Part shown: one piece after another, positions 1 to 60,444 of the stretch
Numbering within the stretch: the first letter of the stretch is position 1
Layout: every line of letters begins with the position of its first letter
DNA from: Desulfovibrionales bacterium
GTDB lineage: Bacteria; Desulfobacterota; QYQD01
Reading direction: 5' to 3'
Length of the DNA stretch: 64,000 nucleotides
Assembly: GCA_028715605.1 (NCBI GenBank)
Contig: JAQURM010000006.1
Span: forward strand, 59,589-123,588
Position numbers and translations under genes: made by a program
The notes under the pieces: model-generated
What the model was told of the DNA's origin: nothing
The model's database searches: none
Seen by the model: only the letters and a program-made list of their open reading frames with translations

Positions 1-60
1 ATTTTTGTCCAAAATGTCAAAGTGAAAATTAGCGTATAACTGAAGTTTTCTGAGTTGTTA

Positions 61-239
61 GGAAACCCCTTGTGTTTCTGAGCGAAACTTGCTGGAGCAG
101 TCCGCCTTAGGCGGATCGCGGGCGAGCAGGAAGGGGAAAGCCAGCCCTTTAGAGGCTGGAAGGGGCAAACCTTCCCCGCCTGCGAGTCCCGAAAGGGTCG
201 CTGCGCAAGCCGTGAAGCGAAGAAACTAAGGGGTTTCAC
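61..239. ncRNA. Unclassified structured RNA element, copy 1. The second copy is at 60031-60199. The closing stem is GTTTCT...AGAAAC. Internal hairpins are CCGCC-TTA-GGCGG, CCAGCC-CTTTAGA-GGCTGG and CCC-GAAA-GGG.
   Basis: About 150 nt is near-identical between the two copies. Where the copies differ, both still form a hairpin at the same place (CCAGCC..GGCTGG here versus TCCGCC..GGCGGA in copy 2). The element is ORF-free. The strand is undetermined. Confidence 0.5.
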
Positions 240-325
240 TTAAGAAATGTAAAATTATAAATAAGATCAAGTAATATGGAATGCGTCTATAAAAACTCAG
301 GAAGATGCTAAATTAATACGAACTC

Positions 326-31075: not shown

Positions 31076-31106
31076 CTATAGGCAACGTCACTGGTCAATA
31101 GTCAAA

Positions 31107-31276
31107 GTCAATTTCTCACGCAAAGGCGCAACGACCGCGAAGTAAAAATGAAAATCTGGAAATCAAGAAATCAGGAATAAAAGATTTTTTCATGAGTTCC
31201 TGAGTTCCAAATCTTATTCTTTTTGCGTCGTTGGCGGCCTTGCGTGATATTTTGGACTTTTTACGAGATTGTCAAC
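31107..31276. repeat. MITE-like repeat family A, copy 2
   Basis: About 95% identical to 1270-1439. Confidence 0.8.
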
Positions 31277-35483: not shown

Positions 35484-35622
35484 CCACGCGAAAGCGCAAA
35501 GACCGCAAAAAGAATAAAATTTGGAACTCAGGAACTCATGAAAAAATCTTTTATTCCTGATTTTTTGATTTCCAGATTCTCTTTTTTTTTCTTAGCGCGT
35601 TTTGCGTCCTTGTGGTGAGACG
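35484..35622. repeat. MITE-like repeat family A, inverted copy
   Basis: Reverse complement of the 1290-1400 core. Confidence 0.75.
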
Positions 35623-59832: not shown

Positions 59833-60030
59833 CGGATCTATTCCATCGGTCAGCTTTGGGCTTTCGACCTATAGTGCAAAGCCGAAAACGGGTATCTCAC
59901 AGATGGACACTATCTAATAACAAACAGGGTAAAAGTCAACTTTAACCGCTTTAAGTTAGCAGTCGAGCACAGGCAACCACGGTTATAAGCGTTTAAACTG
60001 GAGCTTCCTGACTTTTTAGAGAATTCCTAT

Positions 60031-60199
60031 GTTTCTGAGCGAAACTTGCTGGAGCAGTCCGCCTGAGGCGGATCGAGGGATAGCGGGAAGGGGAAAGTCC
60101 GCCTTAGGCGGAAAGGGGCAAACGTTCCCCGCCTGCGACTCCCGAAAGGGTCGCTGCGCAAGCCGTGAAGCGAAGAGACGAGGGGTTCCCTAAAGAAAC
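60031..60199. ncRNA. Unclassified structured RNA element, copy 2
   Basis: See the 61-239 entry. The differences between the two copies are compensatory within their hairpins. Confidence 0.5.
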
Positions 60200-60274
60200 G
60201 CAGAATTGCCGGTAGATTATAGTATTATGAGAATACTTCTTAAAAAAATCAGAGAACTCCAGGCGCTTAAAAAC

Positions 60275-60303
60275 TTGACACCTTCTTGCCCAGGTGTTAA
60301 ATA
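60275..60303 (+). promoter_or_regulatory. Sigma-70 promoter for tRNA-Pro: TTGACA, 17-nt spacer, TAAATA
   Basis: Perfect -35, canonical spacing and a near-consensus -10. The transcription start site would be about 10 nt before the tRNA. Confidence 0.6.
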
Positions 60304-60320: not shown

Positions 60321-60397
60321 CGGGACGTAGCGCAGCTTGGTAGCGCACCTGAATGGGGTTCAGGGGGCCGGAGGTTCAAATCCTCTCGTCCCGACCA
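60321..60397 (+). tRNA. tRNA-Pro (anticodon GGG)
   Basis: Acceptor stem CGGGACG/CGUCCCG. Anticodon loop AUGGGGU. T-loop GGTTCAAATCC. CCA is encoded. Confidence 0.85.
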
Positions 60398-60405
60398 GAT
60401 TTTTC

Positions 60406-60444
60406 GAAAAGCGGCCTATCTGATGGATAGGCCGCTTTCTTTTT
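60406..60444 (+). terminator. Rho-independent terminator after tRNA-Pro
   Basis: Hairpin aaaagcggcctatc-tgatg-gataggccgcttt, followed by cttttt. Confidence 0.7.

Follow-up and report, generated by a model that had tools for sequence, protein, structure and literature searches.

Two structured repeats in a 64-kb Desulfovibrionales sequence are probably insertions of a MITE with a covarying, rod-shaped interior

Both copies of a repeat found in the window, which is the whole stretch of 64,000 nucleotides (64 kb) analysed here, are most probably due to insertion of a MITE (a non-autonomous DNA transposon) of ~ 265 bp, a reading to which we assign a probability of about 0.8. The terminal inverted repeats, together with target-site duplications of 9–10 bp, identify the element as a MITE. 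It adds one more member to a known class of mobile repeat and is abundant in related genomes of the sulfate-reducer type; it does not represent a new RNA gene in two copies. The sequence-only reading had proposed a free-standing RNA gene of this sort; the segment it described turned out to be the interior of a MITE, in view of the terminal repeats, duplications, at least 24 copies in a single genome, unrelated neighbours and decaying orthologues. The repeats themselves are real and lie on the plus strand approximately where that reading had placed them, while the number of two is true of the window only, as relatives hold dozens.

Results

Copies in the window

Structured cores were located with a covariance model at positions 59–243 (copy 1, 193.9 bits) and 60016–60196 (copy 2, 179.4 bits), both on the plus strand, and no third copy scored above noise in the 64 kb window. 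The two copies are ~ 83% identical over the 181-nt core alignment and 91% identical inside ungapped blocks. The MFE of the core is −90.9 kcal/mol in copy 1 (z −4.7 against shuffles) and −80.2 kcal/mol in copy 2 (z about −3.5, precisely −3.45). All details that had been quoted for the pair were confirmed: the internal hairpin CCAGCC-CTTTAGA-GGCTGG of copy 1 against TCCGCC-TTA-GGCGGA of copy 2, the closing helix in which GTTTCT faces AGAAAC in one copy and AGAGAC in the other, GGGG-N8-CCCC, and CCCGAAAGGG. The differing hairpin of copy 2 is nearly a duplicate of its own first hairpin (GTCCGCC-TTA-GGCGGAA and GTCCGCC-TGA-GGCGGAT, respectively), which points to replacement as a block instead of stepwise compensatory mutation.

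The repeat had been described as ~ 160 nt long. The unit is longer, and it reaches terminal repeats at 40–54 and 296–310 in copy 1 and at 59998–60012 and 60248–60262 in copy 2, with 9-bp direct repeats outside the latter. Copy 2 (59998–60262, plus strand) is an intact element of 265 bp, comprised of both terminal repeats, the core and an AT-rich module, and flanked by the duplication. Its left terminal inverted repeat CTGGAGCTTCCTGAC (59998–60012) has 2 mismatches to the consensus; the right one, ATCAGAGAACTCCAG (60248–60262), matches the consensus on the minus strand with 3 mismatches and is kept in the orthologous loci L086 and L088. The left target-site duplication GCGTTTAAA (59989–59997) is identical in 8/9 positions to the 9 nt following the right terminal repeat, GCGCTTAAA (60263–60271). 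Within the AT-rich module (60197–60247), a promoter scan predicted a minus-strand promoter-like site, TTAAGA-16-TATAAT, extending from 60243 to 60216, and a similar predicted site, TTCTCA-17/18-GATAAT, occupies the corresponding position in 7 further copies. The entire unit folds into a single long hairpin in which the terminal repeats are paired (−101.5 kcal/mol, z −4.35). As had been noticed from the sequence, copy 2 lies just upstream of a tRNA-Pro promoter: outside the element, a −35 box TTGACA can be read at 60275–60280 and tRNA-Pro(GGG) was called at 60321–60397, both on the plus strand. This −35 box begins 13 nt past the terminal repeat, which is the modal spacing of the family.

Copy 1 occupies positions 40–310 (plus strand). 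Its right end is decayed, and its left terminal repeat and core match the family. On the left it is preceded by the stop codon of fpg/mutM (30–32), and on the right it is followed by the ATG of a radical SAM gene at 326; synteny with locus L090 assigns window positions 1–32 to the 3′ end of fpg. A TGTCAA motif left of the element, considered as a −35 box, was rejected as it sits within the fpg coding sequence. The left terminal inverted repeat CTGAAGTTTTCTGAG (40–54) differs by 2 mismatches from the family consensus CTGGAGTTTCCTGAG, and similarity between copies stops at its 5′ edge. The right terminal inverted repeat CTCAGGAAGATGCTA (296–310) is degenerate, agreeing with the consensus CTCAGGAAACTCCAG in 10/15 positions, and with this end decayed no convincing target-site duplication is left at copy 1. 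Between the core and this repeat lies the AT-rich module (AAGAAATGTAAAATTATAAATAAGATCAAG..., 244–295), which matches the family module with 2 mismatches in 18. Helices of the core (59–243) were mapped from alignment A3. They are P1b (74–79/221–226), a tandem G-A (80–81/219–220), P2a (82–83/217–218), P2b (88–92/205–209), P3 (97–101/200–204), hairpin P4 (102–114), PX (116–118/190–192), P5ext (120–123/186–189), P5 (126–130/179–183), P6 (141–146/154–159) and P7 (162–165/174–177).

The sole ORF is a mechanical 54-aa frame crossing copy 2. No transposase, reverse transcriptase or nuclease gene adjoins either window copy, and in the Rfam 15 scan of the window only two tRNAs reached the gathering score.

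Size of the family

A pattern scan gave 43 genome and 40 metagenome matches, and 47 distinct true copies were retained. The covariance model, which separates true copies from chance loci merely holding both anchor motifs, detected 51 copies in Thermodesulfobacteriota MAGs and metagenomes, of which MAG JBFMFO01 alone harbours at least 24, plus 4 diverged copies of the Binatia type. The latter came from a pattern that forces conservation of two motifs. About 35 genome and metagenome pattern matches were assigned to chance, including a conserved group of Verrucomicrobia type (L027, L062, L076 and L084) that was rejected by the covariance model. The match on a viral contig (L002) is also due to chance and falls within a phage gene. 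Nothing credible was found for four copies in Rfam 15, whose models cover 6S RNA, RNase P, riboswitches, ribozymes and HEARO/omega RNA, up to E 10, in agreement with the sequence-only reading that no known family could be assigned. A BLAST search of plasmids and phages with the whole unit as query gave no match, and a literature search found no report of the core sequence, nor of such a MITE in Thermodesulfobacteriota.

Ends and modular organization

The full unit of ~ 265 bp consists of 15-bp terminal inverted repeats (CTGGAGTTTCCTGAG), a structured core of ~ 180 nt and an optional AT-rich module. The limits of similarity between copies coincide with CTGGAGTTTCCTGAG and CTCAGGAAACTCCAG, or with TAGGACTTTCCCCAC in a second subfamily; upstream sequences outside the terminal repeat are unrelated from copy to copy. 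The distance between the ends ranges from 210 to 269 bp, and no transposase gene is present inside. Target-site duplications, 9–10 bp long and AT-rich, lie directly outside the terminal repeats in at least six copies of the first subfamily. They are perfect in L040 (GATGTTTTT twice), L080 (TTAAATTTTA twice) and L009 (TGGATTTTT twice), and imperfect in window copy 2 and in L005 (8/9 in each). Those of the second subfamily include GGACTTAA and ATAATATG. Binatia-type copies are bounded by an 18-nt flanking inverted repeat, and no target-site duplication could be recognised in them.

Modules differ in presence and orientation. The AT-rich module is missing from some copies (L040, L007), and in L008 and L068 it is located upstream of the core, in inverted orientation. 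In L008, L068 and L088 the core is inverted relative to the remainder of the unit. Scanning did not disclose a convincing promoter on the plus strand inside the element, inspection by eye of the left end for sigma-54 or sigma-70 sites was likewise negative, and no promoter or terminator is conserved along with the core on this strand. The sole recurrent promoter-like site in the element points in the opposite direction.

Fold and covariation

The consensus fold is a long rod built of closing stems, two tandem G-A motifs, internal loops, a bulge and a tip with two hairpins. Internal loops GAAA/CCGUGAA and the UGGA bulge are conserved. The interior of ~ 180 nt is an imperfect palindrome, and the same applies to the whole unit including its terminal repeats. 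Across 43 pairs in 40 copies, 96.8% of cells are paired. Fifteen of the 43 pairs are altered on both sides, a number reached in none of 500 shuffles, and slid controls collapse. G-U outnumbers A-C by 77:22 when cells are counted and by 54:20 when clade events are counted (~ 3:1), pair counts not being phylogenetically independent. The plus strand is the more stable one in 28 of 32 copies. This paired and G-U-biased pattern of substitutions favours selection on the plus strand as a single strand.

The compensatory covariation that had been deduced from two copies thus holds family-wide, as compensatory and wobble changes on the plus strand, with the exception of the copy 2 hairpin described above. 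Random, non-compensatory divergence among copies is not what is seen, so the structural part of the earlier claim survives. Not all of its hairpins do. Covariation is lacking in CCC-GAAA-GGG, which had been regarded as a GNRA hairpin, and is present in a long-range helix that competes with it; Binatia-type copies do not have a GNRA hairpin at this position. The TCCGCC-TKA-GGCGGA hairpin occurs at P4 and/or P6 across copies. A K-turn at GC-GAA-GA-AAC was considered and rejected, since a U-A to C-G covariation at columns 19:168 sets the helix register and indicates a regular helix with a tandem G-A. No hypervariable, guide-like segment was found in the alignment.

Insertion sites

Flanks of the element are characterized by AT-rich DNA and by promoter-like motifs. 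The first 9 flanking nucleotides are 71% A + T, and an outward TTGACA-like box lies at most 32 nt away in 25 of 49 flanks, compared with 7.5 in shuffles (maximum 17). Most of these boxes begin 10–13 nt from the element end. Spacers between divergent genes are occupied more often than those between convergent ones (18 vs 3), and within spacers of tandem genes the core runs antisense to its neighbours 17 times and in the sense direction 5 times. A figure of 24 divergent upstream genes among 28 cases was set aside as inflated by divergent spacers, the informative ratios being 17:5 in tandem arrangements and 18:3 among spacers. Six copies are located in tRNA promoter regions. Neighbouring genes have no functional theme and include dnaB/rplI, serS, pyruvate kinase, dtd and tRNAs, and the orientation of the core relative to neighbouring genes and the promoter varies. 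A riboswitch or a cis-regulatory leader was rejected, as neighbours share no pathway and orientation is not constant.

Orthologous loci

In the relative represented by L090 (GCA_030693185), the spacer between fpg and the radical SAM gene is only 71 nt long and the element is absent. The protein is 91% identical and the gene order is the same; the spacer is too diverged to be aligned base by base, and the unduplicated target was not seen. Insertion at tRNA-Pro is common to every relative examined (two to three), with no clean empty site among them. In one of these orthologues the P6 hairpin is deleted, and in another only an inverted half is left. The tRNA-Pro promoter stays conserved while the element copy decays. 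Decay of orthologous copies in relatives proceeds by deletion.

Discussion

Proposed origin and behaviour

The terminal repeats would be recognised by a transposase supplied in trans, probably of the DDE type given the fixed staggered cut of 9–10 bp; the CT(G) termini prompt no more than a guess at an IS4-like enzyme. Insertion would take place in AT-rich DNA, typically in the UP-element zone just upstream of sigma-70-type −35 hexamers, and such targeting would account for the enrichment in divergent promoter regions and beside tRNA genes. The fold, in the least certain part of the model, would serve the transposon itself and not the host. Most likely, the core would descend from the autonomous parents of the several subfamilies, where as a structured leader or end region it would control transposase expression or assembly at the ends, and single MITE copies would drift and decay afterwards. 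An autonomous partner was sought via orphan terminal repeats and multi-copy ORFs; since neither the window nor ~ 0.7 Mb of loci yielded an autonomous element sharing these terminal repeats, the transposase family and the idea of a parental leader stay conjecture. It is rather unlikely that the core is a functional RNA encoded by the transposon, that is, a strand-specific rod of ~ 170 nt acting in the life cycle of the element. Such an RNA could be a cofactor or regulator of the transposase, or could direct the element to promoter UP elements. Loops GAGCGAAAC, UGGA, CGUGAAGCGAAG and GGGUCGCUG are kept in Thermodesulfobacteriota and Binatia-type genomes, while stems and terminal repeats change. 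If true, a classical transposon with inverted repeats and target duplication would here carry an RNA of a class new to mobile elements.

Alternative explanations

The same conserved structure could belong to a stand-alone family of small RNA genes, whose ~ 170-nt plus-strand product acts in trans or bound to protein, and in which inverted repeats and duplications are incidental or the gene hitch-hikes on a transposon. Its strand-specific conservation, the loops and architecture shared by Binatia-type copies with different stems, and the 17 vs 5 antisense excess in tandem spacers, by which the core is rarely a passenger of an upstream mRNA, would fit this explanation. We nevertheless regard it as very unlikely, because neither a promoter nor a terminator is conserved with the core, sequences upstream of the terminal repeat are unrelated among copies, orthologues lose whole hairpins or half of the core, the core is inverted within the unit in three loci, copy number varies between 2 in this 64-kb window and at least 24 in MAG JBFMFO01, and there is no match to an Rfam family. 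Another explanation, which we hold to be unlikely, is a cis element spread by transposition and serving the host, either as a rod that stabilises, processes or insulates mRNA, or as a unit that modulates the adjacent promoter with its AT-rich module and terminal repeats as upstream binding sites. Precedents exist, since promoters and IHF sites are found in Correia elements and BIMEs, and long RNA hairpins are formed by MITEs (PMC3184786). The strong positional association with −35 boxes and tRNA promoters and the recurrent promoter-like site in the AT-rich module agree with such a role, but AT-rich target preference is a simpler account of position, the tRNA-Pro copy decays in relatives in which the promoter is conserved, and the core has no constant orientation relative to the adjacent promoter.

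Structure may also matter in DNA, single-stranded or cruciform, with hairpin extrusion uniting the ends for transposase; alternatively, replicative template switching from arm to arm would keep the arms complementary without selection on RNA. Together with its terminal repeats the unit makes up a single long imperfect palindrome, G-T is the least destabilising mismatch in DNA as well, and hairpins are swapped or duplicated whole within copies, as TCCGCC-TKA-GGCGGA at P4 and/or P6, in a manner resembling templated repair. Neutral conversion between arms, however, predicts no excess of G-U over A-C on one strand, while 54:20 was observed; the conserved loops and bulge (GAAA/CCGUGAA, UGGA) are asymmetric and not palindromic, and the fixed 9–10-bp duplication with terminal repeats indicates double-strand cut-and-paste or copy-paste, which needs no strand-specific hairpin. 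Either form of this DNA-level explanation is considered unlikely as well. A decaying duplication or chance similarity free of structural constraint, to which the mere two copies in the window and the decay of old individual copies could point, is practically excluded by 51 copies in several genomes, by covariation significant against both controls, and by folding z-scores of −3.5 to −4.7.

Significance of the proposed MITE family

Recognition of the MITE keeps a mobile repeat from being listed as a new RNA gene and adds a previously undescribed family from uncultured Thermodesulfobacteriota, with ends, duplication, subfamilies, consensus fold and a covariance model defined. The near-fixed spacing of 10–13 nt to −35 hexamers, including those of tRNA promoters, makes it a candidate for a transposon homing to UP elements, which could rewire or mark strong promoters. 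Strand-specific structural constraint inside a MITE is rare, with a precedent in bcr1, and the element offers a system in which to ask how a non-autonomous transposon makes use of structured RNA or DNA.

Comparison with known systems

The resemblance to 6S RNA and RNase P RNA suggested by the sequence-only reading did not hold. The element shares with 6S RNA a long closing helix with internal loops, and a CR-I-like string of RNase P, GGGGAAAGUCCGCC, is present in copy 2 only, within a hairpin that other copies have replaced or lost; covariance models of both RNAs gave no match for four copies at E up to 10. IS110 bridge RNAs and the omega RNAs of IS200/IS605 are accompanied by an adjacent recombinase or by TnpB/IscB, contain a variable guide, and come without terminal repeats or duplication. 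An element bearing a guide RNA was rejected, as no such gene is found in the neighbourhood, terminal repeats and duplications are present, and there is no guide-like segment.

REP, BIME and REPIN sequences are similar in being mosaic, modular intergenic repeats in which an AT-rich module separates inverted motifs and which can fold into hairpins. REPs, however, are units of 20–40 bp without target-site duplication, mobilised by RAYT and located mostly at gene 3′ ends, whereas the present element has duplications, is ~ 265 bp long and resides mostly in promoter regions. IS10/IS50-type elements of the IS4 family have a 9-bp duplication, ends starting with CTG and a subterminal AT-rich or host-factor region, and in Tn10 and Tn5 transposase is controlled at the RNA level by sense and antisense transcripts that are structured and overlap close to one end. 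The likeness in duplication length, CTG-starting ends and AT-rich subterminal region may serve as a lead only, and the terminal repeat sequence differs from those of IS10 and IS50.

MITEs are defined as elements shorter than 400 bp without a transposase gene, with terminal inverted repeats, target-site duplications, many intergenic copies, often 5′ of genes, and a long RNA stem-loop (PMC3184786). All features that define MITEs such as Correia/NEMIS of Neisseria, ERIC, RUP and Nezha are found in the present element too, the likeness being one of features. Correia and ERIC duplicate TA, whereas 9–10 bp are duplicated here. Instead of a plain hairpin, the interior forms a rod that forks at its tip and bears conserved asymmetric loops. 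Copies of the element are built from modules, the AT-rich one being optional and the core invertible. The bcr1 repeat of the Bacillus cereus group (~ 155 bp) differs in phylum, sequence, size, a cruciform-like fold of two stem-loops and direct repeats of 5 bp, and is known to be transcribed, while the present element is known from sequence alone. Likewise mobile and non-autonomous, with short direct repeats and a non-conserved genomic distribution, bcr1 is the closest precedent for covariation within a MITE-like repeat.

Distribution of the element

The G+C-rich, hairpin-dense element is present twice in the window, both times on the + strand, as the sequence-only reading had claimed. A covariance model placed the cores at 59-243 (193.9 bits, copy 1) and 60016-60196 (179.4 bits, copy 2), and with filters off it disclosed no further core above noise in the 64 kb window. 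All sequence details quoted in that reading were found. The two cores are 83% identical over a 181-nt alignment, and their folding against shuffled sequence gives z scores of -4.7 (copy 1) and -3.5 (copy 2). At gathering score, Rfam 15 revealed two tRNAs and nothing else in the window, and a search up to E 10 gave no credible match for either window copy or for two copies from other genomes, in agreement with the sequence-only reading, which could place the element in no known family.

A pattern of two conserved loop strings at set spacing (GAGCGAAAC N100-130 CGTGAAGCGAAG) was used in a scan through one genome per species and then through JGI metagenomes, yielding 43 genome loci and 40 metagenome loci. 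About half are chance matches, to be expected since a pilot-scan match inside a phage gene was due to chance, and the remainder are clearly the same element. Distinct copies among these loci number 47, raised to 51 by the covariance model; chance loci with both anchor strings receive no score with it. With 51 copies across MAGs and metagenomes, the initial idea of a two-copy RNA gene is not sustained. At least 24 copies reside in MAG JBFMFO01 (Thermodesulfobacteriota), and the remaining Thermodesulfobacteriota copies in four further MAGs of the phylum and several metagenomes. Four diverged copies, termed Binatia-type, were found in a Candidatus Binatia MAG and in one metagenome contig of similar kind, and they score with the model (E 5e-10 to 3e-5). 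Four mutually similar ~ 150-nt stretches with both anchors (GGAGCGAAACG...CCCGTGAAGCGAAGC) in Limisphaerales-type contigs (L027, L062, L076, L084) were rejected by the model as family members, and probably represent either an unrelated element or a gene segment that is conserved. The radical SAM gene adjoining copy 1 has the same protein sequence in an NCBI-labelled 'Desulfovibrionales bacterium' MAG.

Organization of the unit

Alignment of copies together with their flanks shows similarity that extends well past the limits originally set for the element. The unit is comprised of a 15 bp left terminal repeat (CTGGAGTTTCCTGAG), a spacer of about 4 nt, a core of ~ 180 nt with a 20-bp closing stem of its own, an AT-rich module some 50 nt long, and an inverted 15 bp right repeat (CTCAGGAAACTCCAG). 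Including its terminal repeats, the whole unit folds into a single long hairpin. Copy 2 is intact (59998-60262, + strand, 265 bp), and copy 1 (40-310, + strand) has a good left end and a degenerate right end. A second subfamily is characterized by TAGGACTTTCCCCAC ends, another closing stem (AUGGAAGCC/GGCUUCCAU), and an AT module that has diverged. The AT module is absent from some copies (L040, of 210 bp, and L007), and located on the opposite side of the core in L008 and L068. In L088 (2792-2890, MAG JASEGX01), L008 (6241-6491), and L068 (5163-5400), the core or half-core is inverted with regard to the AT-rich module and right end, consistent with inversion between the arms of the 20-bp closing stem.

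Direct repeats of 9-10 bp, with sequence varying from copy to copy, are found immediately outside the 15-bp repeats: GATGTTTTT twice in L040, TTAAATTTTA twice in L080, TGGATTTTT twice in L009, TCAAATTAA/TCAGATTAA in L005, and GCGTTTAAA/GCGCTTAAA in copy 2. No recognisable target duplication was found at the flanks of copy 1, nor was any seen at those of Binatia-type copies, which carry an 18-nt inverted repeat. In Candidatus Binatia MAG CBDCDW01 (L006, L037, L013), REP-like ACCTGAA(A/T)ACTCGTTCCCCGAGGAG units in both orientations surround Binatia-type cores, and in L013 a 33-nt tandem duplication (TTCGCTCAGGAACAACAACTTCCTTTGCATT) immediately precedes the core.

A MITE (miniature inverted-repeat transposable element) is defined as a small, non-coding element with terminal inverted repeats, target duplications, and many dispersed copies (PMC3184786). 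Because terminal repeats, target duplications, small size, lack of coding capacity, and dispersed copies are combined here, the element is a MITE. In this lineage it has moved many times by transposition into AT-rich sites beside -35 boxes, the staggered cut at the target being a fixed 9-10 bp. All but two of the MITE features tested were found; a cognate insertion sequence was not. The empty-site comparison was made for copy 1, which is separated by 7 nt from the preceding fpg stop codon (30-32) and by 15 nt from the start of the radical SAM gene that follows. A relative (L090) with the order fpg, radical SAM, metallophosphoesterase, cheA, and with a radical SAM protein 91% identical to that in the window, has a 71-nt fpg-radical SAM spacer without the element. 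This spacer is too diverged to be aligned base by base or to display an unduplicated target; the comparison therefore shows a syntenic site that lacks the element and not an empty site exact to the base.

The window also contains another repeat family, unrelated to this one and about 170 nt long, at 1268-1439 and 31105-31276 (direct, 96%), with a further, inverted copy at 35485-35587. It is built of CGCAAAGGCGCAAAGACCGCGAAG motifs plus AATCTGGAACTCAG / TTCCTGAGTTCCAAATT motifs, the latter at no fewer than six places in the window. The 200-nt radical SAM-metallophosphoesterase spacer is taken up entirely by one copy; since the syntenic spacer in L090 has only 11 nt, this repeat too looks like a mobile insertion.

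Insertion sites and neighbouring genes

Genes neighbouring the element are functionally unrelated (dnaB, rplI, serS, pyruvate kinase, D-tyrosyl-tRNA deacylase, endonuclease IV, and others). Copies in the window neighbour a radical SAM enzyme, a PAS histidine kinase with its sigma-54 activator, an amidohydrolase, and tRNA-Pro, and no transposase, reverse transcriptase, or nuclease adjoins either of them. Divergent spacers number 18 versus 3 convergent ones, and where the spacer is of tandem type, 17 cores run antisense to the genes and 5 run sense. In three MAGs (L003, L038, L045), the rplI-dnaB spacer contains an old copy that is antisense to both genes and 56 nt away from the start of dnaB, so the dnaB mRNA or promoter must run through, or start within, the element.

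An outward TTGACA-like hexamer occurs at most 32 nt from the end in 25 of 49 flanks beside recognisable ends (loci L003-L082 and the window), compared to a mean of 7.5 and a maximum of 17 in shuffled flanks. In about 18 flanks it starts 10-13 nt from the end, just past the 9-bp duplication; A+T content of the duplicated 9 nt is 71%. In six cases the element flanks a tRNA gene on its promoter side (Pro in the window and in its ortholog L086, Met, Arg, Cys, and Glu). Next to copy 2, the -35 box TTGACA (60275-60280) is 13 nt beyond the element end, and tRNA-Pro begins at 60321. Directly after tRNA-Pro, a strong intrinsic-terminator-like hairpin of 14 pairs is followed by a T run (60408-60438). 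In the simplest reading, these data suggest that the element prefers the AT-rich UP-element zone immediately upstream of -35 boxes; the spacing may reflect either target choice or selection after insertion.

The tRNA-Pro insertion is old. Its orthologs are found in MAGs JBFMFO01 (kinase 94% identical) and JASEGX01 (kinase 96%), and the right end and flanking 9-mer are common to all three. JBFMFO01 has lost hairpin P6 and the left end, and in JASEGX01 the core is reduced to its 5' half and inverted. Such decay in relatives argues against a host function for this copy.

Fold of the core

A hand-drawn fold was tested on 40 Thermodesulfobacteriota copies (core alignment A3). Its outer half consists of helix P1b, a tandem G-A, P2a, the internal loop GAAA/CCGUGAA, P2b, a UGGA bulge, and P3, and its inner half of the small hairpin P4, PX, P5ext, a second tandem G-A, P5, and tip hairpins P6 and P7. 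Standard pairs occupy 96.8% of 1719 cells, and both sides have changed in 15 of 43 pairs. None of 500 column shuffles matched the observed pairing, double changes, or covariation score, and sliding partners by 1-3 columns lowered pairing to 37-51%. The outer closing stem is compensatory between subfamilies (GGGAACCCC/GGGGUUC versus GGAAGCC/GGCUUCC). G-U wobbles outnumber A-C mismatches (77:22 cells; 54:20 clade events on a neighbour-joining tree), and the + strand is the more stable one in 28 of 32 copies, by a mean of 7.7 kcal/mol. Pairing, wobble bias, and + strand stability thus point to selection on the + strand as a single strand, and the double-changed pairs and G-U excess in the 40 copies uphold the suggestion that structure is kept by compensatory change. 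Binatia-type copies have in common with the family the architecture and loop strings GGAGCAGCGGG and GGGUCGCUGCG, the presence of two anchor strings in them being forced by the search pattern, and differ in their stems.

Two hairpins described from the two window copies have to be revised. The CCC-GAAA-GGG region shows only C-to-U changes, compatible with either fold, while the competing helix P5ext (GGGC/GCCC) has changed on both sides in all four pairs, and in Binatia-type copies a continuous helix (CCCACCG/CGGUGGG) replaces the region and leaves no GNRA hairpin; a GNRA hairpin is therefore not supported. The second hairpin does differ in sequence between the copies, but its difference looks like a block replacement and not like stepwise compensation: UCCGCC-UUA-GGCGGA in copy 2 nearly repeats that copy's own first hairpin, and the same 15-nt palindrome occupies either or both hairpin positions in L030, L055, L074, and L003. 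In the window, the palindrome TCCGCC-TKA-GGCGGA is at 60059-60074 and 60100-60115, and it also occurs in L038, its positions being P4, P6, or both. P4 differs even between orthologs, with this palindrome in the window and GGGGCACCC in MAG JBFMFO01. It seems that hairpins are exchanged in blocks, perhaps through templated repair or inter-copy conversion. Across the family, stepwise covariation is observed at P6 (A-U to C-G at 85:99, C-G to U-A at 83:101).

Mobility and structural constraint

The interior of the element is under strand-specific structural constraint. A purely DNA-level cause, by cruciform formation or arm-to-arm template switching, explains the hairpin swaps but fails on the one-strand wobble bias and conserved asymmetric loops. 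The constraint might instead be expected of true trans-acting small-RNA genes; such a family is unlikely, given that no promoter or terminator accompanies the core across copies, that the core can be inverted inside the unit, that old copies have lost hairpins, and that copy number varies widely. Copies may also serve the host in cis, through promoter modulation or RNA stabilisation, yet at the tRNA-Pro locus the copy decays while the adjoining promoter is perfectly conserved.

A MITE of this kind would be moved by a transposase supplied in trans that recognises the 15-bp ends. The enzyme is probably of DDE type and, with the 9-bp duplication and CT(G) termini as pointers, possibly IS4-like. 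The existence of two subfamilies, each with ends and a closing stem of its own and an AT module to match, implies that no fewer than two cognate transposases are involved. The simplest explanation for constraint on the core is that it is inherited from, and needed by, autonomous parents, in which the core could be, for example, a structured leader or an end region governing how the transposase is expressed or the ends are assembled; the MITE copies, for their part, would drift and decay, as at the tRNA-Pro locus. The purpose of the fold is the weakest part of this account, as neither an autonomous partner in the loci retrieved nor a + strand promoter for the element was found. On the minus strand, the AT module of copy 2 holds a promoter-like site (TTAAGA-16-TATAAT), and those of seven other copies hold TTCTCA-17/18-GATAAT. 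It is speculation that an antisense transcript across the core could arise there; if made, it would recall the sense/antisense pair of the IS10 end.

No description of the family was found in Rfam, in plasmid or phage records, or in searchable literature, and its near-fixed -35 spacing and deep core conservation merit specialist attention. The nearest functional precedent for a mobile repeat that keeps its structure is bcr1 of the Bacillus cereus group, a ~ 155-bp repeat with 5-bp direct repeats, in which RNA structure is kept by compensatory changes and lost in some copies (PMC3184786).
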